Counted from the stretch's first letter, positions 12,779 to 28,006 are shown. The stretch is 64,000 nucleotides of DNA from Candidatus Zhuqueibacterota bacterium (GCA_049322915.1 JBMOPW010000003.1:100318-164317), one strand, 5' to 3'. Notes: a model not told the origin generated them from the sequence alone. Program-made: numbers and translations.

Positions 12779-13186
12779 TTATTCTGCAAATTCGAATCGG
12801 TTGTCCGCTTTACCATCATCCTTCTTCGTCGCCGGGGAACGCCCCGGACGCGCCGTCAGCATTTTGAGCAACTGCCAATCGTCGTCGTTCAACTGCATCC
12901 TGTCCGCGATGAGAACCGCCTCGTATCCAGCATTTCTCAACTGGCTCACCCGCAACAGCGTTTGCCGAAGCGAGACGCGCAGTTCTTCCCAGGTATGTTC
13001 GGGATGCCCATTTCCATCATTCAGGCTCAGACTGTTTGCAAGCAAATTGGGGATGGCCACCTTTTCCACTTTTGTCACGCGCCGAAATTTCCGCTTTATC
13101 GTGTAGCTCTTTTTCGCCAGCGGTTCAAAATCCAGACGTTGCTCAATGCTGGTTCTATCGTTGAGTCTTCTCATCCACACCATCAA
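12779..13186 (-). CDS. hypothetical protein
   Basis: 135-aa ORF directly downstream of a sigma-28-like promoter. Confidence 0.5.
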   Translation of the reverse strand: MMVWMRRLNDRTSIEQRLDFEPLAKKSYTIKRKFRRVTKVEKVAIPNLLANSLSLNDGNGHPEHTWEELRVSLRQTLLRVSQLRNAGYEAVLIADRMQLNDDDWQLLKMLTARPGRSPATKKDDGKADNRFEFAE

Positions 13187-13221
13187 CCATTTTATTTCTA
13201 TTCGCTTAGACTTTTAATATC

Positions 13222-13249
13222 ATATCGACAGGCCGCATGAAATTCCTTA
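13222..13249 (-). promoter_or_regulatory. putative sigma-28 (FliA/SigD) promoter
   Basis: Minus strand TAAG-N16-GTCGATAT versus consensus TAAA-N15/16-GCCGATAW, upstream of a csrA/flagellin-like operon. Confidence 0.6.
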
Positions 13250-13468
13250 ACAGATAATCCAATCTTTTCGCTTTGAATCTGAGCGAAAACTGGGACGGAC
13301 GCCATAAATCCGGCAACGGAGCTGTATCGGAAATCAGCCACGCGATGGATGTTCTCTGCCAGGTAGGCTCTGTTTTGCCACCTGCGACTTTGGCTGGCGC
13401 CGGGAGCGCCGCCACTAAAAACGAAAAAATTCAGCCTGGCCGGAGCGGTTTGATGTTCATTTCAAACC

Positions 13469-13501
13469 AAAAAAAAAGGTGATTGACTAATCAACCACCT
13501 T
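13469..13501 (-). terminator. rho-independent terminator of the hdr cluster
   Basis: Minus strand AAGGTGGTTGA-TTAG-TCAATCACCTT followed by a U-tract, just after the hdrA-mvhD stop. Confidence 0.85.
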
Positions 13502-13529
13502 CTGTTGCTGAGCAAGAATTGAAATTTGA

Positions 13530-16019
13530 CTACATCCGCGCCGGCGCAGCAGATTTTTCCGGAGTTGCCTGCTCTTTGGCTGCGCGCTCCTTCTTCGGCC
13601 TGGCTTCTTCGGCCAACACTTTCATGGTATATTCCACTTCATCCTGGGTGACTTTCTGGCGCATTTCTTCAACGGCTTTCATCACTTTGGCCCATTTCTG
13701 CCCTTCGGCCGCGCTGACCCACTCCAATTGCAGCCGCTCCGGCCGAATGCCCGCCTTTTCCAATTTATCCCACAGTTTCTCCACGCGCTTTTGCGTGGCG
13801 CGGTTGGCGTCGATGTAATGGCAATCCGCAAAGTGACAGCCGGAGACCAGCACAATGGGCGCGCCCAATTTGAACGCATGCAGCACAAATTTGTCTTTGA
13901 CGCGCCCGCTGCACATGGTGCGGATGATGCGGGCGTTGGCAGGAAATTGCAGCCGCGACAACCCGGCCAGGTCAGCCCCGGCGTAGGAGCACCAGTTGCA
14001 GGCAAAGGTGACAATTTTGTCCATGTTGTTTTCCGACAGAATCGCTTCGATTTGCGCGTACATCTGAGCATCGGAGAAATGCCGCATGGTGATGGCGTCG
14101 AAGCGGCACTCGGCGCTGCACGTGCCGCAGCCCTTGCACGACGCTTCAATCACCCGCGCCGGCAGTTTCGATTTTTTATCGAATACAATGGCGTTGAAGG
14201 GACACACATTGGCGCAGATTCCGCACATGGTGCAGGCTGCCTCATCCACCTGCGCTGTAATCGCTTCGATTTTAATTTTGCCGGCTGAGAGCAACACCCC
14301 GGCGCGCGCCGCTGCCGCACTGGCCTGGGTGACGCTGTCTTTCACGTCTTTGGGGAATTCGGCGCAGCCGGCAAAGAACACGCCGCCGGTGGGCGCATCC
14401 ACCGGTTTCAACTTGGGATGCGATTCCATGAGGAACCCGTCCGCGGTGCTGGACAGGCTCAATAGCTTTTTCACCGTCTCGTTATCTTTACGGGGAATGA
14501 CGCCGACCGAAAGCACTACCATATCCAGTTCGTGCTCTTCCAGAGTCCGCGTCGTTGTATTTTCCACCGTGAGGTGGAGCTGTCTGGTCTTCGGATTTTC
14601 CTCGATCTCTCCCGGTATGCCGCGAATGTACATCACTCCGGCTTCTTTGCTGCGCATGTACAGGTCTTCGAACCCCTTGCCAAAGGCGCGAATATCCATG
14701 TAAAAAACCTTGACTTCGACATCCGGGTAATGATCCTTAAGGAGCAGGCTGTCCTTCACCGTGTTCATGCAGCAGATGTTGCTGCAATAGGGATTGCCCC
14801 GCTCCGGGTCCTGGGTTCGCGAGCCCACGCACTGGATGAAGCCGACTGTCTTCGGCGTCTGGTGATCCGTGGGACGAATGAAATGTCCCTGGCTGGGTCC
14901 TTCGGAGCAGATGAGCCGTTCGAATTCCATGCTGGTGATGACATTCTCGAACCGCGTGTAGCCGTAATCATCCAGCCTGGTCGGATCGTACACATCCATC
15001 CCGGTGGCGACAATGACGGCTCCCACCGTCACATTCAGCATTTCGTCGCGCATGTCATAATCGATGCACTTTTTATCGCATGCGTCGTAGCATTTGCCGC
15101 AGGCAATGGGATTGTTGCCGAGGCAATTTTCCATATCCAGAATGTATGCGGAAGGCACTGCCTGTGGAAACGGCATGTAAATTGCCTTTCGCGATGACAG
15201 CCCCATCTGGAATTCGTTGGGCACAATAATGGGGCAGACTTTGAAACACTCGCCGCACGCCGTACATTGCTTTTCGTTAACGTACCGTGCTTTTTTACGG
15301 ATGGTCACCTGAAAATTACCAACGTAACCGGAGACGTTTTCGACCTCGCTGTAAGTGAGCAGTTTCACTCGTGGATGTCGACCGACATCCATCATTTTCG
15401 GACCTAAAATTCATATCGAGCAATCCATTGTTGGGTAGGTTTTATCAAGCTGGGCCATGAGTCCACCGATGGATGGCTGTTTCTCCACAAGGTACACTTG
15501 AACGCCGGTATCAGCCAGATCCAGCGCCGCCTCGATGCCGGCAATACCGCCGCCGATGACCAGCGCCTTGCGGTCCACCGGCACTTCCATTTCATGCTGA
15601 ACCGTTAAATGCCTGGCCCGCGCCACCGATACTTTCACCGTGTCCTTTGCCTTCCTCGTTGCAGCGTCTTTGTCGTACAGGTGGACCCAACTGCAATGCT
15701 CCCGGATATTGGCCATTTCGAACAGATAAGGATTCAGGCCTACTTCGGCCACGCAATTGCGGAACGTCGGCTCGTGCATCCGCGGCGTGCAGGAGGCCAC
15801 AACAACGCGATTGAGCTTGTGTTCCACAATATTTCTTTTGATTTCCATCTGGCCGGGATCCGCGCAGGTATACCGATTGACGCACGCAAAAGCGACATCC
15901 GGCAGCGTGGCCGCATAGTCACTCACTGCGTGGCAGTCGACCGAACCGGCGATGTTCAGCCCGCACTCGCAGACAAACACCCCGATCCTCAGTTCCGTAT
16001 CATTCAATTTTTCTGCCAT
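13530..16019 (-). CDS. hdrA: heterodisulfide reductase subunit A fused to MvhD domain; selenoprotein (UGA at 15411-15413 read as Sec), about 829 aa
   Basis: [43 protein letters not shown] in frame; ferredoxin motifs; C-terminal MvhD FACNWCSY...MCSGR...GCHFADCHY. Confidence 0.93.
15375..15394 (-). promoter_or_regulatory. bacterial SECIS-like hairpin of hdrA-mvhD
   Basis: Minus strand TGGATGTC-GGTC-GACATCCA, loop beginning 27 nt after the UGA; coordinates approximate. Confidence 0.75.
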
Positions 16020-16322
16020 CTTGATTCCTCAATTCTGGTTTTTATGTTATTACCCAGCAACTTTTGCAAATTTGAGCAAAAGAATTATATTTGAACCGGT
16101 CATATAGTTTTACTATGTGCGGCTATGCCGCGCTGGGAATAGGGGAAGGATTTACAGATTTTGTTCCAGTATTTTCTATTTAAAAAAATATAACACATTT
16201 TTGTCTACCACTTTTCTTTCTTTTATTTTTAACACAATTAAAAATCCGTGAGAATCTGTGTTATCCGTGTCATCCGCGTTCTATGTTTTTTAATGTTTAC
16301 TTCGTTAGAATTTGATATAGAA

Positions 16323-17228
16323 TTATACCACCTCACTCCCTTCAACCGGCCCGATCTTCGCCATAATCGAATCGAATTTGATGCGGTGCAAGTGCAAGCC
16401 CACTTCTTCAGGTGAAAATCCCTGGGCCAATCCCAAAAGCTGGCAAAAATAAATCACCGGCAAATTGAACTCCCGGTTCATCTTTCGGGAAATCATAATC
16501 TGTCCCATATCGAACGAATTGAAACAGGTGGGACAAATCAATCCCATGCAATCAGCCTGAACCGATTCCATGGAAGCGAAAATTTCGTATGTCATTTCCA
16601 GGGGCATGTCGGCGTCCATACAGCCCTTGCCGCAGCAGAGGAGCTTTTCACTATGCGTGAGCGGCGTTGCGCCCAGCGCTGCAATGAGATTTTCCAGCAG
16701 GTTGGGATAGTCCGCGTCGTCGATGGCCATTATCTGGCTCGGCTTCAGCAAATGACAGCCGTAGTGAATGCCCACTTTCACCCCGGTCAGCGGCCGCTTC
16801 ACCGACGCCCTGATCGGCTCGATGCCGAGATCATCGCGCATCATCACCACAATGTGCTTCACCTTACCGGTGCCCTTGTACTCGCGATTGACCCGCTTCA
16901 ACCGGCGGTTCACTACCTCGCGGAGTCCCTCATCTTCGGCCAGCATGAACCGCGCCTCCTGCAACGTGGATGTGCAGCCGCTGCACATGGTAATCACATC
17001 CAGGCCGGCATCTTCGGCGATGCACAGATTTCTCGCGGCAATGGTGAGCCACTGGACTTTATCGCGCGCCTTGAAATAGATGGGATCCGGGCAGCAGGTG
17101 AACCCGTCCAGGTCGACCAGTTCCACGCCGATGGGTTCCATGGTTTTTCGCACCGACAGTTCCATTTGCGGGTATTTCGCCGGAATCATGCAGCCCCAGA
17201 ATGGCGCCACACGCAGTTTTTTCGCCAT
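16323..17228 (-). CDS. hdrB: heterodisulfide reductase subunit B (two CCG domains)
   Basis: FWGC, TCCP, ARNL, CSGC, HYGCHLLKP, CCG, CPTC. Confidence 0.95.
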   Translation of the reverse strand: MAKKLRVAPFWGCMIPAKYPQMELSVRKTMEPIGVELVDLDGFTCCPDPIYFKARDKVQWLTIAARNLCIAEDAGLDVITMCSGCTSTLQEARFMLAEDEGLREVVNRRLKRVNREYKGTGKVKHIVVMMRDDLGIEPIRASVKRPLTGVKVGIHYGCHLLKPSQIMAIDDADYPNLLENLIAALGATPLTHSEKLLCCGKGCMDADMPLEMTYEIFASMESVQADCMGLICPTCFNSFDMGQIMISRKMNREFNLPVIYFCQLLGLAQGFSPEEVGLHLHRIKFDSIMAKIGPVEGSEVV

Positions 17229-17720
17229 AGTTACCTCGTAGTAACGGTATTATTTCAGGATAAGTTATATTTTATTAAAATCACAAATTTCAAATAAATG
17301 CGCTGCAGGACGCATCTGCCTTCGGCATGATTTCAATTTCAAAATAGCAGGGTCCAAACTTGAATATCAACTGAATATTGAAAATAATGTATCTGCTCAG
17401 CCTCAAAGACTCAAAAACTCGAAGTTAAATTTATTAGTTTGATTCTATATTCAAGGCCTAACAAATTCGAAAATTAACTTTGCCTTCCTTCATGTTCTAT
17501 TGAACTCCCTTCTCCCTGTGGGAGAAGGGCCGGGGATGAGGGAAAGAATTATTACATTATTTTTAATTCTATTGAAGTCAAGCTGAGTAATAGTTACAAA
17601 ATACTCTAAAACATTTCAGTGAATGAACATATTTGTTTGTAATTTGGTTCTTTATCTTTTGAAATTTATTTGATATTTGGATATTGTCATTTTTATTTTT
17701 CTACACATATTGGATACAAT

Positions 17721-18188
17721 TTAGGGTTCGATGATTTTCTGCAACTCACTCACATCGATGTCCTTCAATTCCGGCAAGCCCAAATCTTTCCTGCGGCGAT
17801 TCACCGTGCTGGTAATCACCACGCTGCGCCCGGTTTTTATCAGCGCATCGGAAAATTTGTTGATGTCATCCGGCAGAACGCCATCCTCGGCGCAGAGATT
17901 TTTCAGCGCGATGATCACTTCCACCGGCCGTACATCCTGGGGACACCGCTCATAACAACTGTAACAATTGGTGCATTTCCAGATAATGGAATCCGGCCGA
18001 ATCAAATCCTCTTCTTCGCCAAGCAGTGTTTTAAGCATAATATCCCGCGGATTGAAATCTTCCGAAAACCGCGCTGCCGGGCACACAGCCACGCACGAAC
18101 CGCACTGGTAGCAGTAATTGTGGTGCTTGCCCCCAACAATTTTATTCAACCGCTCCCGAAATTCAAAACTAAGTTTTTTCTGAGTCAT
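17721..18188 (-). CDS. hdrC: heterodisulfide reductase subunit C
   Basis: CYQCGSCVAVCP and IWKCTNCYSCYERCP. Confidence 0.93.
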   Translation of the reverse strand: MTQKKLSFEFRERLNKIVGGKHHNYCYQCGSCVAVCPAARFSEDFNPRDIMLKTLLGEEEDLIRPDSIIWKCTNCYSCYERCPQDVRPVEVIIALKNLCAEDGVLPDDINKFSDALIKTGRSVVITSTVNRRRKDLGLPELKDIDVSELQKIIEP

Positions 18189-18295
18189 AGTAAGCCTTTG
18201 GTGATTGGTTTACTGGTTATTTGTGATTGGTCTGACGTGTACATTAACGACTCAATATATTTATCTAAAAGCTGGTAATATCTAATTGCCAAACG

Positions 18296-19570
18296 CTATC
18301 GCAACAACACCATTTTTTTCACATCCACGAATTCACCCGACTGCAAAATATAAACATACACCCCTGAAGCGACAAAGGAACCGTTCTCATCACAACCATC
18401 CCATCGTAAAGTATAATTTCCTGCCTGTTTCACTTCTCTTACAAGCGTACGTATTTTCTGCCCGAGCTGGTTATAAACCATTAGTGTGGTTTGCCCAGGT
18501 ACAGGAAGTTGAAAACGGATTTCGGTTCCAGAATTAAATGGATTTGGAAAGTTTTGATGGAGAACAATAGTTTCATTCAATTGTGATTTCTTAACATTGT
18601 ATTTCACCTTAGAGACTGTTGTGTCTAAGTATACACTTAATCCATTTATATTTTTGAACCAGATTGCTCCTTTTTTATCTACATAGAAAGCTTGCGCGTC
18701 ATTGCCCAAAACACCTTCTAAAGTTAGATGCTCCCACTGCCGACCATCAAACCTAGAAAATTTTTTTTCTGTAGAGCCATAAGAAGCCCAAATATAATAA
18801 AAGGAATCGATAATGACACTAACATAATTAGATAATAGCCCATCACTTACAGTATACACTTGTACGTTATTCCCATCATAAATTCCTAAACCTCTTCCAT
18901 TAGTACCGAACCAGAGACGATCATATTTATCAAAACTAAAGCTATATGCCGTCCACATCAAGTCTCCCCATAAATAGCTGTTAATATCTGAAAGACCATT
19001 TGTATGTCCAATAAAAAGTTTACCTTTTCGGTCTACACCAAACTCTAAAATTGGATCATATATGGTTGTGCCAGGAACGTAGAAAGGATGCCATTGCAAC
19101 CTGTCGAACCAATATGCCCAGTTAGCCATAGAACCGGCCCATATATAACCTGAGGAATCAACTCCTAAACTTTGAATCCAGGTATCTTTTTCATTTCCAG
19201 AAGGATTGTAATAAGTAAATGTGGAATCGTCATACTTGACCACATATTCCTTAGTAGGGTTGCTCATTGCTACGCCAACAAACCATTTATTATTTTCTTT
19301 ATCTACAACTATTTGATTTTTGAAAAACATTGTACTATCCCAAACAGTTGAATCCACCAAAGTATGCCAGATACCGTTCGTATCTAATTGGCACACAGCA
19401 TTATCTGTCGCAAACCAGTAATTGCCGTATTTATCCTGTGTCATATCAAAAACCACACCTGGCAGTTCATCGGTGTAATACGTCCACACACCTTGCGCTA
19501 TGCAAATAGATATTTTAAAAAATAGCGAAATGATTACTATCATGAGATATTTATTTATCCGTCTTTTCAT
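18296..19570 (-). CDS. AT-rich secreted beta-propeller protein with FlgD-Ig/T9SS-like C-terminal domain, inserted in the hdr cluster
   Basis: Signal peptide MKRRINKYLMIVIISLFF; repeats DKYGNYWFAT, DSSGYIWAG, DRLWFGTNGRGL; QNFPNPFN C-terminal domain. Confidence 0.85.
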   Translation of the reverse strand: MKRRINKYLMIVIISLFFKISICIAQGVWTYYTDELPGVVFDMTQDKYGNYWFATDNAVCQLDTNGIWHTLVDSTVWDSTMFFKNQIVVDKENNKWFVGVAMSNPTKEYVVKYDDSTFTYYNPSGNEKDTWIQSLGVDSSGYIWAGSMANWAYWFDRLQWHPFYVPGTTIYDPILEFGVDRKGKLFIGHTNGLSDINSYLWGDLMWTAYSFSFDKYDRLWFGTNGRGLGIYDGNNVQVYTVSDGLLSNYVSVIIDSFYYIWASYGSTEKKFSRFDGRQWEHLTLEGVLGNDAQAFYVDKKGAIWFKNINGLSVYLDTTVSKVKYNVKKSQLNETIVLHQNFPNPFNSGTEIRFQLPVPGQTTLMVYNQLGQKIRTLVREVKQAGNYTLRWDGCDENGSFVASGVYVYILQSGEFVDVKKMVLLR

Positions 19571-19637
19571 CTTTGCACCTGACATGATAATTCTAAACTC
19601 TGCGCAGAGGAGTGTTTCCCAGGGGAAACCTTTATTA

Positions 19638-20783
19638 TTATTCAACCACCAACTGCGAAACCAACGTCACCAAATCTTTAATCTCCAGATTCACTTCTTT
19701 TTTCAACTGCTCATCCTGAAGCGCGCATTTGTAGTGGATTTCACATTTGGGGCAGGCGGTGATCATCATGTCCGCGCCGGCGCGTTTCGCTTCGCGAAAC
19801 CGGTTCGCCTGAATGGTTTTGGCGACAGCGCCGCAGGTGAGCCAGTTGCCCACGCCGCAGCAGGTCGCTCTTTTCCCGCTCTTTTCCATTTCCACAAATT
19901 CGATATTCGGTATCGCGTCGATGACCGATCGCGGAGCTTCGTATACGCCCATGTGCCGACCCAACCGGCAGGGATCGTGGTAGGTGACCGGGATTTTCAT
20001 CTCCTTAAATTTTATGGATTTATTTTTCACCTGCTCATCTAACATTTCCAAAATATGAACCACTTTAAAACCGAGTTTCCCGAAATAAAAGGGATATTCC
20101 TGGGAAAACGTCTGATACCCCTCCGGGCAGGAAAACACCACGGTTTTGGCGCCGGCCTCCTCGATCAGTTTGAGATTGTGTTCTGCCAACCGTTTGAAAT
20201 TATCCAGGTCCCCGCTCCACAGCATATCGTGGCCGCAGCATCGCTCATCCGGCAGCACCACCGGGGCAACGCCCATTTTATTCAAAAGCTGAATCGCGCC
20301 TTGTGTTGAGCCAACCGATTCCACGTTCAACTCGGAAAAATAGATATCAAAATAGGGCGCGCAACCGACAAAATACAGCACGTCACCTTTCTTGGCGATT
20401 TTCAAATCTTTGGACAGCCAGTCCATGCGGTTCTGTTTCAGCTCTTTGGCGGTCATGATGCGCATGAGCGACTGGAACGCGCCGCCGTGACTGCACTCTG
20501 CTTTTTGGCCGGTGTTCATGGAAATGGACCGAACGTCCCGCATAAACGTGATGTAATCGATTTGGGAGGGACACCGCGTCTGGCACAGTCCGCAGGTTAA
20601 GCACTCCCAGAGCGATTTATCGTGGTACAATGTTTCCTGGTCTTTTAACACGCACTGCATGAGCATGGAACGCGGCGAGAAGCTATGGTTGATCTTGGCG
20701 ACAGGGCAGTTTCCGGTGCATTTTCCGCAGTCGAGGCAGTGATAGGCCCTGGTTCGTCTGATTATTTCGCCGATAGTGTTCAT
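19638..20783 (-). CDS. HdrD/HdrF-like Fe-S oxidoreductase (2x4Fe-4S plus two CCG domains)
   Basis: CLDCGKCTGNCP, CLTCGLCQTRCP, YFVGC, ERCCG, YHDPCRLGR, TCCG, TACPKC. Confidence 0.9.
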   Translation of the reverse strand: MNTIGEIIRRTRAYHCLDCGKCTGNCPVAKINHSFSPRSMLMQCVLKDQETLYHDKSLWECLTCGLCQTRCPSQIDYITFMRDVRSISMNTGQKAECSHGGAFQSLMRIMTAKELKQNRMDWLSKDLKIAKKGDVLYFVGCAPYFDIYFSELNVESVGSTQGAIQLLNKMGVAPVVLPDERCCGHDMLWSGDLDNFKRLAEHNLKLIEEAGAKTVVFSCPEGYQTFSQEYPFYFGKLGFKVVHILEMLDEQVKNKSIKFKEMKIPVTYHDPCRLGRHMGVYEAPRSVIDAIPNIEFVEMEKSGKRATCCGVGNWLTCGAVAKTIQANRFREAKRAGADMMITACPKCEIHYKCALQDEQLKKEVNLEIKDLVTLVSQLVVE

Positions 20784-20893
20784 AAATTAACTCCCTGAAT
20801 GAGCGATGGTAGAGTTTGTATTTTAAAAGCGGTCAGCCTTCAGCAGTCAGCTTTCAGCTTTTTGATCGTTCTGGTCAATCTGACTCCCAACGA

Positions 20894-21394
20894 TTAAGAA
20901 GTGGCTGCGGCCTCCGGTTCCAGCTTCACTTCAGAATCCGATTGGCCTCTCAACGGACTGGGACCGAGGTCCTTGACGTGCGAAATCATTTCGGTCACGA
21001 TATTGGCGAACTTCTGGGATTCCGCCGCTGAAATTTGCTCCAGCCGCACGCGCTGTTTTTCGACACCAACGAGGTGCAGCATCTTTTCCACTTTTTCGAA
21101 ATTCTCCGCCGCCCGGCGGGCGCCAAACATGTAATGGCAATCAGCAAAGTGTCACGTGGCCACTAAAACGCCATCCGCACCCAGCTCGAACGCTTTGATG
21201 ATGAACGCCGGATTGATGCGTCCACCGCACATGACGCGGATGATTCGCACGTTTGGCGGATATTGAAACCGATTCACCCCGGCGCCGTCCGCGGCCGGGT
21301 AGCTGCACCAGTTGCAGCAGAACGCGACCAGTTTGGGGTCGTAATCGTCCTGCTGTTTCGTCGTCTTTTTCCGGGTCTTGGTTTTTCCTGTCAT
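20894..21394 (-). CDS. mvhD: MvhD/FlpD-type [2Fe-2S] subunit; selenoprotein (UGA at 21152-21154), about 166 aa
   Basis: FCCNWCSY...RVMCGGR...[22 protein letters not shown]...ISAAE in one frame. Confidence 0.92.
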
Positions 21395-21869
21395 GAAAAG
21401 TCGCCTTCTTAAATGAGTCTCATTCGCAAGCCTTAAAAGGCTTAACGTATTTGATTTGATATTGTTATCCACGCCAAAAATGACGTAGCTATTCATTGAA
21501 AAAGCTAAAAGTCAGACACCTTGAATAGCCCCGACTTTTAAGTCGGGGAACAGAAAGTCACCTTTGATTTTTGGGCGTTAGCTCCTTTTTAGCGTCGAAT
21601 TATTCTGAGACTGTGCAATTCAGTTTCATTTTTAAAACCAAATTCAGCATTTCAGAATCGATCATTTTGACAATTTCTTTTTCTGTGCGCCTTTGAGACT
21701 CTGAGGCTGGATAGTTACCAAAATTTCAATCGCCAAAACTGCTTGAAAATTGGCTTTTGAAATTTTAAATTTATCTGTTATTTGCTTTTTTGAGTTTTGT
21801 TTTTTCCCGCCTGCAAGTCTCAAAGACTCGAAATTATAAAACAACATTCGAGTCTTCGCGGTGAAAAAG

Positions 21870-24800
21870 CTATTCATTAAAGATCGCTTCCATCTGCGCT
21901 TCAATCTGGTCATTCGTGAAATGGCGAATATCAATCGCGCCGGTGGGACAGACTGCTGCGCAACTGCCGCAACCCTTGCACAGCGCTTCATTCACAAGCA
22001 CGGCCATGCCGCCGTCAGGTGTCTCTTTCAGCGTCAGCGCATTGAATTCGCAGACCTGCACACAGCGGCCGCAGGCGCGACAGAACCGCGTATTGGCCGT
22101 TGACACAATGGGCTCCAGCGTAATCGTGTCCTCGGATAGCAGCGCCGACACTTTGGCCGCAACTGCCGAAGCCTGGGAAATCGAGTCCGCAATATCCTTG
22201 GGACCCTGGGCGCAGCCGCAGAGGAAAACCCCCTCCATGGAAGTCTCCACCGGTCCCAACTTGGGATGCCGCTCCATGAAGAAGCGGTCGGAACTGCGAT
22301 GAATTTTCAGTAAATTCACGAGGGTATCGCTCTCTTTTTCATCCGGCACCATGCCCAGAGATAAAATGACCGCATCCACCGGGTACTCCACAATGTCGCT
22401 GTTCTGCTTGTTCGGCAATGTCAGTGACGACACTTTTTTCTTGCCATTGAATTGCGGCGGGTTATTTTTTTCATACGGAATGAACAGCACGCCGGCGCCG
22501 CGCGCCTCGCGATACATTTCTTCTGCGCCGCGGCTGTACACGCGCACATCGCGATGAAATACCATCACCTGAATACCCATCTTTCGCAGGGCAAGGGACT
22601 GTTTGATCGCAGCCTGACAGCAATAGCGGGAGCACCCCGGATTGCCCTTTGGCCCGCGCGAGCCCACGCACTGAATAAATGCCACTGTTTTCGGTTTCTT
22701 CCCGTCGACTTCCAGGTATTCGCCGCGGGAGATGAGGCTTTCGAAATACTCATTGGTGAACACATTGGAAAAAATGCCGTAACCAAATTCGCCCCGTTCC
22801 GGCATGTAAAGATTGGAACCAATGGCCACGACAATGGCGCCGACTTTGATCGGCTCTGGCGTCATACCAGGGTCATCGTGCGTCGCCAGGTGCACTTCAA
22901 AATTACCCACAAAACCGTGCACCTGCTTTACCTCCGTGGAGGTGTGAACCATGACGCCCAGCCTGTTCAACTCTTTGATTTTATCGGCTATTAAATCCTC
23001 GCCCGAATTGAAACCGGGGTACAACGTGGAAAGGCATCGCACGCGTCCGCCCAGCTCTTTCTTTTTTTCGATGAGACTGACATGAAATCCTTTTCCGGCC
23101 AGGTCGATGGCCGCCTGAATTCCTGCCACACCACCGCCGATGATCAGCGTATCATGATTGACCCGCAATTTACGTATTTCCAGCGGCGTGAGCAGACGCG
23201 CTTTGGCCACGCCCATGCGCACCAGATCTTTGGCTTTCTGCGTGGCTTCCCGGGGATTGTGTTGATGCACCCAGGAGCACTGGTCGCGGATGTTCACCAT
23301 TTCGAACAGGTAGGGATTCAGGCCCACTTTGGCAAGGCTCGCCTGAAAAATCGGTTCGTGTGTTTTGGGAGTACAGGCGGCCACCAATACGCGGTTCAAT
23401 CTGTGTTCAAATATTTTTTTCTGAATATCGGTCTGGGTGCTGGCGGCGCACGCGAACATTGTCTCTTCGCACAGAACAACGTTCTTCAATTTCCGGGCAT
23501 ACTCCGCCACAGCCGCCACATCCACCACACCGGAGATATTGATGCCGCAGTGACAGACGAACACGCCAATGCGCGGCTCCCCGCTGATTTTCACCTGCGG
23601 GATGACCTCCTCGACCCGCTGAATTTTGTGATCCAACACATGCCGGGCAGCCCGAACCGCTGCCCCGGAGGCGTCGGCAATGGAATCCGTGATGTCCTTG
23701 GGACTGATGGCGCATCCGGCGAGGTAGACGCCCTCGCGCGTTGCATCAAGTGGAATTCCGCAGGGATCGCTCTGTTTGAAAAATCCGTCCCGGTCGATCT
23801 CTATCCCCAGCACATCGCCCAGTTGGCGGCTGCCCTCCGATGGCGTCAACGCCGATGAAAGCACGACCACGTCGAACGCCTGCTTTTCAATTTTACCGGT
23901 CTCTGTATTTTCAAAGACAACGACCGATTTGCCAGTCCCTGGATCGTCCACCACCTTGGACGGTTTGGCTTTCACAAAGTGCAGTTTTTTGATATTGGCA
24001 GCGCGCTCGAAAAACTCCTCGAAGCCCTTGCCAAACGCGCGAATATCGATGTAAAAAATGGTCAAGTCCGAATTCGGGTAATGCTCGTGAATGAGCATGG
24101 CGTCTTTCATGGCGTTCATGCAGCAGATGCGGCTGCAATATTGAATATCCCGCTTGATATTGCGCGAACCGACGCACTGGATGAATGCGATGGTTTTCGG
24201 TGTTTTACAGTCTGTGAATTTGACAAGTTCGCCGCGGGTGGGACCGCTGGCCGAGAGGATTCGCTCAAGTTCCATGCTAGTCACCACGTTCTGAAATCGG
24301 GTGTAGCCCAATTCGCTCGCTTCGCGCGGGTCATAGTAGTCGACGCCGGTGCTGACGATGATGGAACCGACATTCTTCTCCACAATCTGGTCGCGCTCAT
24401 CATAATCGATGCAGTTTTTCTCGCACGCGTCCGCGCATTTGGAGCAGGCCAGGGGGAGAGTTCCGAGGCAATCTTTTTCATAACGGATGTAGGCAGAAGG
24501 GACAGCCTGCGGGAAGGGGGTGAAAATCGCTTTGCGGGTGCCCAGTCCGATTTCGAATTCATTGGGCACCGTCACCGGGCAGACTTTGGCGCACTCGCCG
24601 CAGCCGGTGCATTCATCGATATTGACGAACCGCGCTTTTTTCAAAATTCTGACGTTGAAATCACCGGCCTTACCTGTGACTTCGAGGACAACGCTGTTGG
24701 TGAATAGCTGAATATTGGGATGCCGACCGACATCCATCATTTTTGGACCGAGAATTCAGATGGCGCAGTCCATAGAGGGAAAGGTCTTATCGAGCTGCGC

Positions 24801-24923
24801 CATCTTCCCTCCGATGCTCGGTTCGCGCTCCACTAAATAAACCTGGATTTGCGAATTGGCCAAATCCAGCGCCGCCTGCATGCCGGCGATACCGCCGCCG
24901 ATTACCAGTACGCCTTTGTTCAC
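21870..24923 (-). CDS. hdrA: double-module HdrA-like flavoprotein; selenoprotein (UGA at 24756-24758), about 1017 aa
   Basis: GGAGG RBS plus GTG start; GGGIAG...[27 protein letters not shown]; second module [10 protein letters not shown]...GGGVAG; C-terminal ferredoxin. Confidence 0.92.
24718..24735 (-). promoter_or_regulatory. bacterial SECIS-like hairpin of the second hdrA
   Basis: Minus strand GGATGTC-GGTC-GGCATCC (one G-U pair), same spacing from the UGA as in the other hdrA. Confidence 0.72.
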
Positions 24924-25187
24924 GGATTTCCTCCACAATGTGTCTGCGGATCGTTTAAATATTGCTTTTCAATTTTGGTTGCATCGTTGCTGGAAATAGA
25001 ATCACTTTGCTGTCAGACGAACGGACTACCTGGCCGATCATCGACGAATCGAGCGCGCTGCTTGTCATTTCGATCATCCAAATCAAGGGCATGAATCGAA
25101 GAAAGCCGGTTCCCGCATTCGCCAACCCATGCGGTGATCAGGCCAATTACATCTCGACTCGCCGGCTCAGCAGCGTCCGTGCTTTTT

Positions 25188-25742
25188 CTAATTTTTTACC
25201 TGAAACTGCTCCATGCCGAAGTCATAACCCTTATCGAACGCCTTCAGATTGAGCTCTTCAGTGCCTTTGGGCACCGATAATTCCACGGTCTTGCGGACCG
25301 AATCCTTGTCAACAACCTTACATACAGCCGTAAAGAATCCCAGCATCACGATATTCAGGACAATCTTTCGACCGATCTCCTCGGCCAGTCGAGTCGCTGG
25401 CACTTTGTACACCGTGATTTTGTCCCGAACCTGAACGTCCTTGACCAGGTCTTCATCAACCAGCAGGATGCCGTCATTCTTCAATTCAGGCTCAAATTTG
25501 GTGTACGCTTCCTGTGACATGGAAATTAAAATATCAGGTCTGGTCAGATAGGGATAGAGAATTTTTTCATCCGAAACAATGACCTGCGCGCTGCATGCGC
25601 TGCCGCGCGCTTCCGGCCCGAAACTCTGGTTCAGCGTGGCATGTTTACCAGCCTGAATTGCCGCCGCCTTGCCGATGAGATAGCCGCACAAAATGACGCC
25701 CTGTCCACCAAATCCGGTGACGCGTATTTCAGTTTTTGCCAT
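25188..25742 (-). CDS. korC: 2-oxoacid:ferredoxin oxidoreductase gamma subunit
   Basis: GFGGQGVI, QSFGPEARGS, NIVMLG, NLKAFDKG; GAGGAGG RBS. Confidence 0.9.
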   Translation of the reverse strand: MAKTEIRVTGFGGQGVILCGYLIGKAAAIQAGKHATLNQSFGPEARGSACSAQVIVSDEKILYPYLTRPDILISMSQEAYTKFEPELKNDGILLVDEDLVKDVQVRDKITVYKVPATRLAEEIGRKIVLNIVMLGFFTAVCKVVDKDSVRKTVELSVPKGTEELNLKAFDKGYDFGMEQFQVKN

Positions 25743-25961
25743 TATTTTTATTCCTCCTCGGAGAGAGTTTTTCGCCTCGAAGGCGCCAGGACTCGAAGGA
25801 AAACATTTTGTATTGAAAAAAAATTGTTCGGCGTTTTTGCAAAATTTCACTGGTAGTGCTATTCGATTTTCGCCGCTGGAGTTTCAATAATTTTTTATTG
25901 CCATGCCTGTTTTTCTTTTCGAGTCTTAAAGTCTTCGTGGCAATCATCTATCAAACTAAAA

Positions 25962-26852
25962 TCAAGCTGCTTCTTCTTTTGCTTGTTTGACGGCGCCATA
26001 AGGCACGAACTTGTCGCCCAGCTTTTGCGATAGCCAGCCATTCCAGTTATCGATGAATGTGGGTTTTTCCTTGTCAACGAATTTGCCCACGATAATTTTT
26101 TCCTGAAAGGCGATGTCCAGTTCATCGAGACTGGCGCCATGCTTGATCTCGCTGTTATCGTGATAGAATTTCATCAGATCCAGACCGGTGCCCAGTCGAT
26201 TGCGTCGCGCGTACAACGTCGAGCAAGGTGCGATCACTTCGACGAACGAAAAACCGCGTTTGTTCAAAGCCTCGGTCATGGAACGGGTCAGGCGGCGAAT
26301 GTGGAGCGACGTCCATCGGGCGACATACGTTGCGCCGCACGACGCAGCAAGCATCGGCAAATTGAACGGCATATCACTGTTGCCGTAGGGCGACGTGGAA
26401 CTGTTCGCGCGAAGCGGCGTTGTTGGAGCGCATTGTCCGCCGGTCATGGCGTAGATGAAATTATTCACGCAGATCACGGTGAGGTCCATGTTCCTTCGCG
26501 CCGCATGGATGAGGTGATTCCCGCCAATGGAAATTAAATCGCCATCGCCGCTGAACACGATCACTTTCAGCTCCGGGTTGGCCAACTTCAACCCGGTGGC
26601 AAAAGGAATGGCGCGTCCGTGAGTTGTGTGAAACGAATCCAGCTTGATGTAACCAGCTACCCGTCCGGTGCAGCCAATCCCGGAGACGATGGCGATTTTA
26701 TCCAGCGGATAATCGAATTTTTCCAATGCAGCGATGAAACAAGAGACTGCCGTGCCAATGCCGCATGTCGGACACCAGATATGAGGGATGCGATCCATCC
26801 GCAGCAATTTCTCCATGGGATGTTCCGGCAGATTATCTTTTATCGTACTCAT
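25962..26852 (-). CDS. korB: 2-oxoacid:ferredoxin oxidoreductase beta subunit (TPP-binding)
   Basis: WCPTCG, SGIGC, HGRA, GDGD...NN, MTGGQ. Confidence 0.93.
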   Translation of the reverse strand: MSTIKDNLPEHPMEKLLRMDRIPHIWCPTCGIGTAVSCFIAALEKFDYPLDKIAIVSGIGCTGRVAGYIKLDSFHTTHGRAIPFATGLKLANPELKVIVFSGDGDLISIGGNHLIHAARRNMDLTVICVNNFIYAMTGGQCAPTTPLRANSSTSPYGNSDMPFNLPMLAASCGATYVARWTSLHIRRLTRSMTEALNKRGFSFVEVIAPCSTLYARRNRLGTGLDLMKFYHDNSEIKHGASLDELDIAFQEKIIVGKFVDKEKPTFIDNWNGWLSQKLGDKFVPYGAVKQAKEEAA

Positions 26853-28006
26853 TTGACTGCCTCCTGTATTACTTTGAAAATTTTATCCGGATCATGGACC
26901 CAGCCGCCGGCATGGGGCACATGAAATACCTTTGCTTTGCCACAAACCACTCGCTCCAATTCCAGCACCACCTGGCCCAGATTGATTTCCGGCATCACGA
27001 ACGCTTTGGCCGTTTTTGCCAGTTCTCTCACGCGTCGTTCCGGGAATGGCCACACGGTGATCATTTTTACAAATCCCACTTTTATGCCTTTTTCCCGCGC
27101 CTTAAAAACCGCCGGCATGGCCACGCGGGACGTGATTCCGTAGGCCATCACAATGACGTCGGCATCTTCGGTCTGATCTTCCTCGATTTCAATAATGTCG
27201 TCCGCGTTCTTCTTTATTTTATCGCACAGTCGGTTGACGAGTTTGTCCTGGGTTTCCGCGGTCATGACCGGGTAGCCGCGTTCGTCATGGGTCAAGCCGG
27301 TGGAGTGAATGCGATAGCCTTCCCCAACGACGATCATTTCCGGCACCAAATCCTTGCCGGCCTTGTAGGGCAAATATTTATCCGGCGGCAATTTGGTCAA
27401 GCGCCGGGGAGTAATTTCGATGTCATCCGCCGCAGGGATAACGACTTTCTCGGTCATGTGGCCCACGCATTCATCCAGCATCAGCAGCACAGGCACGCGA
27501 TATTTTTCAGCAAGATTAAAGCATTTAATGGTGTAATCGAAACTTTCCTGCGGCGACGCCGGGCTCACCGCGATGATTTCATAGTCTCCGTGAGAGCCCC
27601 AGCGCGCCTGCATCATATCCTGCTGGCCAACCATGGTGGGCAGTCCGGTCGACGGGCCGCCGCGTTGCACGTTCACGACGACGCATGGCGTCTCCATCAT
27701 CACGGCTAATCCGATATTTTCCATCATCAGCGAAAAGCCGGGACCGGACGTGACCGTCATCGTCTTCTTCCCGCCCCAGGCGCCGCCGACCACCGCGGCC
27801 ATGGAACCGAGTTCATCTTCCATTTGAATGAAGATTCCGCCGATAGTGGGAATTCTGGAGACGAACCGTTCCGCCACTTCGGTGGATGGAGTGATTGGAT
27901 AGCCTGCAAAAAACCGACAGCCGGCCGCCAGGGCGCCTTCGGTGCAGGCATGGTCGCCATCGAGATAATGTTCGCCAGTCAAAACGCCTTTGGGATCAGC
28001 TTTCAA
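26849..28006 (-). CDS. korA: 2-oxoacid:ferredoxin oxidoreductase alpha subunit
   Basis: GYPITPSTE, QMEDE, TSGPGFSLM, QRGGPSTGLPT; TTG start with GGAGG RBS. Confidence 0.93.
   Translation of the reverse strand: MKADPKGVLTGEHYLDGDHACTEGALAAGCRFFAGYPITPSTEVAERFVSRIPTIGGIFIQMEDELGSMAAVVGGAWGGKKTMTVTSGPGFSLMMENIGLAVMMETPCVVVNVQRGGPSTGLPTMVGQQDMMQARWGSHGDYEIIAVSPASPQESFDYTIKCFNLAEKYRVPVLLMLDECVGHMTEKVVIPAADDIEITPRRLTKLPPDKYLPYKAGKDLVPEMIVVGEGYRIHSTGLTHDERGYPVMTAETQDKLVNRLCDKIKKNADDIIEIEEDQTEDADVIVMAYGITSRVAMPAVFKAREKGIKVGFVKMITVWPFPERRVRELAKTAKAFVMPEINLGQVVLELERVVCGKAKVFHVPHAGGWVHDPDKIFKVIQEAVK

Follow-up and report, generated by a model that had tools for sequence, protein, structure and literature searches.

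How should one read a gene cluster in which three redox proteins are each broken in two by a TGA codon? The question is raised by a stretch of DNA of 64,000 nucleotides (nt) from Candidatus Zhuqueibacterota bacterium (GCA_049322915.1 JBMOPW010000003.1:100318-164317), which we call the window and which carries on its minus strand a set of genes of the Hdr and MvhD families; the host genome is a metagenome-type assembly of 45 contigs, 96% complete. The answer reached here is that the locus contains three real selenoprotein genes, two of the HdrA family and one of the MvhD family, and not sequencing errors, stops or pseudogenes. We hold it to be highly probable (about 0.93) that the three TGA codons encode selenocysteine (Sec) via the bacterial SelB/tRNA-Sec system, and that recoding is directed by hairpins within the coding sequences, one just past each UGA. 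Such recoding would yield an HdrA2-type HdrA-MvhD fusion, a free-standing MvhD and a tandem HdrA.

Three genes joined through TGA

Translation table 11 gives three split pairs of open reading frames (ORFs) on the minus strand: 13530-15395 with 15411-16019, 20894-21130 with 21152-21496, and 21870-24740 with 24756-24938. When TGA is read through, each pair becomes one frame with exactly one TGA, of 829, 200 and 1022 codons, respectively. The three codons were re-read from the sequence at the positions listed below, where the translated contexts are MDCSI-U-ILGPKM (U203), VAT-U-HFADCHY (U115) and MDCAI-U-ILGPKM (U61); among the 39 long ORFs of the window only these three contain an in-frame TGA. 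An earlier, sequence-only reading of this DNA had proposed that the frames continue past the TGAs, that two HdrA and one MvhD selenoproteins are hidden in this way, and that ORF callers would split them. Frames, family models and alignments now agree with this proposal, and the split is borne out by the six ORFs of table 11. The genes are the following:

13530-16019, minus strand: HdrA2-type gene for an HdrA-MvhD fusion (P0001), 829 amino acids, predicted Sec203 at TGA 15411-15413
20894-21394, minus strand: gene for a free-standing MvhD (P0002), about 166 amino acids, predicted Sec at TGA 21152-21154 (U115 in the numbering of the long ORF)
21870-24938, minus strand: gene for a tandem HdrA (P0003), 1022 amino acids from TTG 24938 or 1017 from GTG 24923, predicted Sec (U61) at TGA 24756-24758

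The fusion protein has the complete domain set of HdrA2, comprising an N-terminal Fe-S domain, a thioredoxin reductase (TrxR)-like FAD domain, inserted and C-terminal ferredoxin domains and an MvhD extension. It scores 1192.8 bits against the NCBIfam model NF040770 of HdrA2 (cut-off 1100), covering model positions 1-776 of 777, and its C-terminus is the FlpD/MvhD domain (Pfam FlpD at residues 669-785), in which the Cys is kept. Residues 9-661 align to residues 3-650 of 5ODC_A and the tail to residues 6-121 of 5ODC_D; since the block that holds U203 (residues 112-214) aligns to 5ODC_A without gaps and with an offset of 6, U203 corresponds to Cys197 of that chain. GAGGA precedes the start codon, ATG 16019.

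The tandem HdrA is built differently, matching 5ODC_A in three stretches (23-379 to 159-510, 454-625 to 3-174 and 848-1021 to 480-651). Its first half consists of the TrxR-like FAD domain with the predicted Sec and an inserted ferredoxin domain; the second stretch matches the N-terminal Fe-S domain and the third the C-terminal part of HdrA, and the second FAD domain has no DCxxC motif. Given that residues 23-379 match 159-510 of 5ODC_A, U61 is again the equivalent of Cys197. The score of P0003 against NF040770, 1139.7 bits, passes the same cut-off only by summing the three stretches; because it is a sum over rearranged tandem stretches, we consider this protein HdrA-like and not an HdrA2 by architecture. 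GTG 24923, before which GGAGGA stands, is a likelier start than TTG 24938, and it coincides with the end coordinate given by the sequence-only reading. In both HdrA proteins, then, Sec would replace the Cys197 equivalent within the C-x-x-C motif of the TrxR-like FAD domain.

For the free-standing MvhD the family assignment comes from Pfam PF02662 FlpD (170.8 bits, cut-off 22.3), the score against the VhuD 'exception' model lying under its cut-off (123.3 vs 215 bits). The motifs CCNWC, VMC and CHxxDCHY are present, with U standing for the first Cys of the last of them, which Sec would thus replace; the protein aligns ungapped to 5ODC_D, where U115 equals Cys67. Its start is likely ATG 21394, which is M35 of the long ORF reaching 21496: AAGAAGG lies upstream of this ATG, and orthologues match the protein from about residue 30-42 on. 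All three TGAs fall on conserved Cys columns, as the sequence-only reading had maintained, and it was also right in calling HdrA and MvhD/VhuD known selenoprotein families: both stand in a list of experimentally verified prokaryotic selenoproteins, HdrA with 1 Sec and MvhD/VhuD with up to 2, in CxxU motifs (PMC13188914, Table 1).

Selenocysteine and its alternatives

The genome possesses the machinery for Sec insertion, for which the sequence-only reading had suggested a search: a tRNA-Sec of 63 bits with anticodon TCA (ARAGORN), selA (561.6 bits) and selB (364.6 bits) adjacent to each other on contig C2, and two selD genes (408.4 and 374.4 bits; C2:57472-58398 and C14:562220-563146), all the protein genes scoring over curated cut-offs. 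One selD has an in-frame TGA of its own, as in a Sec-containing SelD, and the other lies inside an open frame of 736 codons, which suggests a fusion protein. Elsewhere TGA is a stop. It is the commonest one: 13 of the window's 39 long ORFs end in it, as do 828 of 1925 long frames in the whole genome, and no in-frame TGA occurs in rpoB, selA or selB of this genome. A different genetic code (table 4 or 25) was rejected, seeing that TGA terminates so many long frames.

How far is the codon conserved? In the HdrA column of the cross-phylum loci (L022-L097) we counted 43 Cys vs 2 TGA, both TGA genes being in L022. In the order (21 genomes), TGA is present in every one of the 32 HdrA matches with at least 55% identity (31 with one, 1 with two) and in none of the 10 weaker matches (at most 49% identity). 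A motif search on 30 loci of the order extracted 26 motif-bearing HdrA genes, with no motif match in L142 (cut at a contig end), L144, L156 and L157; every one of the 26 has TGA at the site and an intact frame of 802-1049 codons. For MvhD the picture is mixed: 7 of 11 close orthologues have TGA and 4 have TGT or TGC, the phylum as a whole shows 18 Cys vs 7 TGA, and of 79 distinct genes across phyla 75 have Cys and 4 have TGA at the same site. These four come from the same-order locus L022, from two metagenome-assembled genomes (MAGs) of Thermodesulfobacteriota/Deltaproteobacteria and from one Dehalococcoidia MAG.

Could the TGAs be genuine stops, the genes being split into separately translated pieces or decaying as pseudogenes? 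In favour are the separate ORFs given by table 11, the use of TGA as the most frequent stop of the genome and an ATG 5 codons past the first TGA. However, nothing like a Shine-Dalgarno sequence precedes this ATG (15395), the break interrupts the FAD-binding domain at a position where 43 homologues have Cys, and the same single TGA recurs with intact frames in 26 of the 26 motif-bearing orthologues of the order, a degree of conservation that pseudogenes do not have. We regard such stops as very improbable.

A second alternative accepts the readthrough and disputes the residue: the UGA might specify one of the ordinary amino acids, Cys, Trp or Gly, through near-cognate or suppressor decoding, no selenium being involved. 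The homologues do have Cys at these positions, and Sec is the residue predicted from the sequence. Against this stand the dedicated tRNA-Sec with anticodon TCA together with selA, selB and selD, the fact that TGA is no sense codon elsewhere in the genome, conserved hairpins lying where SelB-dependent recoding requires them (see below), and the experimental verification of both families as selenoproteins (PMC13188914, Table 1). Ordinary decoding retains, in our judgement, a very slight chance.

Sequencing or assembly errors for TGT or TGC, which the metagenome-type assembly and the single base change needed to yield Cys might suggest, have virtually no chance, because the same codons recur in separate assemblies of other species (11 HdrA2-type genes, 14 tandem or related HdrA genes and 6 MvhD genes), a conservation that rules out both sequencing error and pseudogenes and with which the corresponding doubt of the sequence-only reading falls away. 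The contigs of run X1, built independently, also show 0 differences at the three sites at a depth of about 69-83, a support that loses force because X1 is possibly the window's own source sample and so not independent; runs X2, X3 and X7 contain only short, diverged pieces from relatives and are uninformative on the three sites.

Candidate recoding hairpins

If UGA at the three sites is read as Sec by SelB and tRNA-Sec, an in-coding hairpin just past each UGA would direct the recoding. In bacteria the selenocysteine insertion sequence (SECIS) is expected to have a G in its apical loop and to lie roughly 16-37 nt past the UGA, the spacing used by bSECISearch. The SECIS of Escherichia coli fdhF is a hairpin within the coding sequence shortly past the UGA, with an apical loop GGUC whose G and U are needed by SelB. 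The window has three candidates:

15372-15391, minus strand: SECIS-like hairpin of the HdrA2-type gene, from its fold, sequence re-checked
21106-21119, minus strand: SECIS-like hairpin of the MvhD gene, from its fold, starting 32 nt past the UGA
24717-24736, minus strand: SECIS-like hairpin of the tandem HdrA gene, GGAUGUC-GGUC-GGCAUCC

The hairpin of the HdrA2-type gene, UGGAUGUC-GGUC-GACAUCCA, begins 19 nt past the UGA and has its loop 27 nt past it; that of the tandem HdrA begins at the same distance and has a U.G pair where the former has U-A. Both resemble the E. coli element in their position within the coding sequence soon after the UGA and in the GGUC loop, and differ from it in stem sequence and spacing. 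The same GGUC hairpin, with a stem of 7-8 base pairs and an invariant loop, is found in all 26 TGA-bearing HdrA genes of the order. In the 25 distinct sequences among them, seven pairs are always formed and the eighth, outer pair in 10; one pair varies between U-A (13), U.G (10) and C-G (2). The synonymous sites within the hairpin (codons GAU, GUC, GGU and CAU) are fixed in all sequences, and immediately before it the Gly and Pro codons take all four bases at their four-fold sites. In 41 Cys-form HdrA homologues a mean of 3.4 of the 8 pairs can form, with a local dG of -3.4 kcal/mol vs -10.7 in the Sec forms, a comparison to be read as suggestive and lacking a matched control, since the Cys-form set is mostly archaeal and has different peptides.

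The MvhD candidate, CCGCC-GGGC-GGCGG, has a GC stem of 5 base pairs and its loop 37 nt past the UGA. All 7 Sec forms share the same 24 nt around it; 3 of the 4 Cys forms depart from them, two by a change of the loop G to U and one by loss of the stem.

Besides the uncertain independence of run X1 and the composition of the Cys-form set, several points weigh against our interpretation. Covariation in the HdrA hairpin is not significant, 112 of 500 shuffles reaching the observed score, and 6 of the 8 pairs never vary; the covariation support is weak because the hairpin shows almost no variation, and its case consequently rests on conservation, including that of synonymous sites, among related sequences. 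Single-sequence folds are unexceptional (z = -1.88, -0.22 and -0.51), and an Rfam scan of 13000-25500 (E up to 5) returned four chance-level matches and no SECIS family. The MvhD hairpin lies far from its UGA, at the edge of the expected range of spacing, and one Cys orthologue (L105) keeps it unchanged. Finally, that selenium is actually inserted is an inference from the sequences.

The cluster, its relatives and its possible function

The three genes belong to a cluster transcribed in the order korA, korB, korG, tandem HdrA, MvhD, HdrD/GlpC-like gene, an ORF with a tail of the type IX secretion system (T9SS), HdrC, HdrB and HdrA2. The korABG genes, directly upstream of the tandem HdrA, encode a 2-oxoacid:ferredoxin oxidoreductase. 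In order of coordinates the neighbours are:

16323-17228, minus strand: HdrB-like gene, two CCG domains, without TGA (Pfam CCG; TIGR03288)
17721-18188, minus strand: HdrC-like gene, 4Fe-4S dicluster (Pfam Fer4_8; TIGR03290)
18296-19645, minus strand: T9SS-tail ORF, 449 amino acids (Reg_prop, FlgD_ig and T9SS C-terminal sorting domain)
19638-20783, minus strand: HdrD/GlpC-like gene, Cys form without TGA (HdrC-like dicluster domain and two CCG domains)
25188-25850, minus strand: korG (NCBIfam)
25962-26852, minus strand: korB (NCBIfam)
26849-28006, minus strand: korA (NCBIfam)

The HdrB-like and HdrC-like genes match TIGR03288 and TIGR03290 with 306 and 108.5 bits, which lie under the respective cut-offs of 345 and 160. 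Two related genomes (G135 and G122) have the full order from korABG to HdrA2 without the T9SS ORF; two others (G127 and G120) have the part from MvhD to HdrA2, again without it, and two more (G133 and G132) the part from kor to HdrD. Directly before the tandem HdrA stands korABG in every relative locus that reaches far enough, fully in G135, G122 and G124 and partly in G132 and G133. A nine-gene kor-hdr cluster of putative function is accordingly conserved across the order. The T9SS-tail ORF lies between the HdrD-like gene, whose stop it overlaps by 8 nt, and HdrC; it was rejected as a member of the cluster, since G135, G122, G127 and G120 lack it at that position, and looks like a lineage-specific insertion.

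In G124, a genome of the same genus, the cluster is enlarged by additional T9SS-tail ORFs, another HdrC and another tandem HdrA. Its contig C21 (L241/L242) carries the duplicated HdrC, 98.7% and 100% identical to that of the window, and the extra copy of tandem HdrA, of 65% identity and also with one TGA. Both G124 and G132 have T9SS-tail ORFs related to that of the window, within the cluster or close to it. Between the tandem HdrA and MvhD, the spacer (21497-21869) contains a repeat of about 230 nt that is dispersed over the genome, giving 89 BLAST hits at about 80-90% identity, e.g. on contigs C16 and C26; the X1 contigs break there, with depth climbing to about 1300, and the repeat may be an element akin to miniature inverted-repeat transposable elements. 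The spacers 16020-16322 and 17229-17720 contain short repeated pieces with 21 and 10 genome hits, and the bin 17340-17720 reaches a depth of about 1200 in the unrelated groundwater run X7. Because its spacers carry repeats, a single transcript of the cluster is not assured. A second Hdr-type cluster lies on contig C36 of the genome (about 100900-114500), with another Sec-HdrA (DCSI-U-ILAPKM), an MvhD having TGA at the other known site (CCNW-U-AY) and further HdrA-like genes without the motif.

By rpoB the genome lies nearest to a MAG labelled as uncultured Cytophagia (91%), followed at 82% by candidate division KSB1 and at about 65% by Calditrichia. In the phylum, represented by 167 species genomes in our collection, tRNA-Sec passes the Rfam cut-off in 103 of 151 genomes, a cut-off that is not fully specific, as 5 of 14 control genomes also pass; 97 reach at least 61 bits among the matches listed. 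The selA gene is over its cut-off in 129 of the 167 genomes. These tallies include two unpublished genomes (G158 and G162), without which they become 101 of 149 for tRNA-Sec and 127 of 165 for selA. A metabolic survey of KSB1 lists selA, selB and selD, declares selC absent and mentions no selenoproteins (PMC9012183); the phylum-wide counts of tRNA-Sec disagree with this stated absence.

What, then, is already known of such loci? Sec forms of both families are on record in bacteria, a survey of more than 5200 bacterial genomes having found 103 Sec-HdrA in 42 organisms and 131 Sec-FrhD/MvhD in 53 (PMC5029168). The sequence-only reading had deemed three selenoproteins in one bacterial operon worthy of note, which overstates their singularity: Desulfobacterium autotrophicum HRM2 has Sec forms of hdrA1, hdrA2, hdrL1, hdrL3, hdrD4 and four mvhD (PMC2702500), and Deltaproteobacteria have an operon of four selenoproteins, frhA-frhD-hdrA-glpC (PMC13188914). 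Like the window, these loci (PMC2702500; PMC13188914) have several HdrA-type and MvhD selenoproteins side by side with HdrD/GlpC-like, HdrB and HdrC proteins, and Sec and Cys forms alternate among the homologues. The window differs from them in its KSB1-like lineage, in the Cys form of its HdrD/GlpC-like gene and in being led by korABG and not by hydrogenase or formate dehydrogenase genes.

The same two families, Sec-HdrA and Sec-VhuD, also occur in Methanococcales, for example in the Hdr-Vhu-Fwd complex of Methanococcus maripaludis (PMC13518236; PDB 9SFI), the Sec197 of which is, via Cys197 of 5ODC_A, the same HdrA residue as U203 and U61. The archaea, however, have their SECIS in the 3' untranslated region, while the window belongs to a bacterial host having SelB with in-coding hairpins, and it has one HdrA fused to MvhD and the other in tandem. 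No [NiFe] hydrogenase genes and no match to the aldehyde:ferredoxin oxidoreductase (AOR) or NuoEFG-like families were seen among the window ORFs scanned (about half of the long ORFs, all below 44.8 kb), and CoM-S-S-CoB is unlikely as the substrate of the Hdr proteins of the window. The C-terminal MvhD extension of P0001 and its adjacency to hdrB and hdrC recall HdrA2B2C2 of Methanosarcina acetivorans (PMC6019823), from which the window differs in that P0001 is a bacterial selenoprotein and its HdrB and HdrC score below equivalog cut-offs.

The likeness extends to the class II benzoyl-CoA reductase of Geobacter metallireducens, in which BamE is a permuted fused HdrA dimer with an N-terminal TrxR-like domain bearing Cys59-Cys62, BamF is an MvhD homologue with Sec19 and BamD is HdrD-like (bioRxiv 10.64898/2026.04.10.717634). 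P0003 also starts with a TrxR-like domain, with C58-x-x-U61, and thus resembles BamE as published descriptions have it; tandem HdrA, MvhD and HdrD-like in a row likewise resemble BamE, BamF and BamD, a comparison of architecture in which no sequences are aligned. The Sec19 of BamF, by contrast, is near the N-terminus, that of the window's MvhD being at the second motif. No genes for BamB/C (tungsten AOR) or BamGHI were seen next to the cluster, and sequence searches of the PDB with P0001, P0002 and P0003 returned no Bam chains.

As to the residue itself, the claim of the sequence-only reading that it is an Fe-S ligand in HdrA finds support in one study and a different account in another. In the M. 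wolfeii structure, Cys197 of the TrxR-like domain of one HdrA is described as ligating the N-terminal [4Fe-4S] cluster of its partner, and in fused or tandem HdrAs the losses of Cys197 and of the N-terminal domain complement each other (PMC9012536), a pattern that P0003 fits, but with the half bearing Cys197 coming first. The cryo-electron microscopy of M. maripaludis (2026) found density between Sec197 and a cysteine, from which a selenylsulfide relay between cluster and FAD was proposed, that is, a Cys-Sec redox pair instead; the same paper calls the role of Cys/Sec197 unresolved (PMC13518236). For MvhD, whose residue the sequence-only reading also took for an Fe-S ligand, our literature search found no passages naming the [2Fe-2S] ligands. 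Whether as cluster ligand or in a redox pair, both of which come from this literature, Sec would tune one- or two-electron transfer beside the bifurcating flavin.

The two Hdr modules might work together with the neighbouring 2-oxoacid:ferredoxin oxidoreductase, bifurcating or confurcating electrons in a ferredoxin-linked manner. A bolder proposal, which we consider unlikely as matters stand, would make korA-korB-korG, tandem HdrA (Sec), MvhD (Sec or Cys), HdrD-like, HdrC, HdrB and HdrA2 (Sec) a single selenium-dependent bifurcating or confurcating assembly, in which a BamDEF-like and an HdrA2BC-like module are wired to the 2-oxoacid:ferredoxin oxidoreductase; we did not find such Kor-Hdr coupling described in the literature on related systems. 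Every HdrA with the Cys197 motif in this genome is a Sec form, so that the pathway would be obligately selenium-dependent if the proposal of a single assembly were true.

HdrA and MvhD were already known as selenoprotein families, and knowledge of the families themselves is unchanged; the only new point is the lineage. The additions are modest, consisting of the lineage record, the presence of tRNA-Sec within the phylum and a kor-hdr array that is conserved. They have practical consequences nonetheless. Where there are three redox enzymes, with 829, about 166 and about 1020 residues, standard gene callers report six fragments, and such calls hide two modules of flavin-based electron bifurcation both in this organism and in those related to it. 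Concrete selenoproteins can now be named for the KSB1-like phylum. The order also offers a natural set of variants for HdrA enzymology, with Sec197 fixed throughout and the MvhD site toggling between Sec and Cys, which bears on the role of Cys/Sec197 beside the bifurcating flavin.

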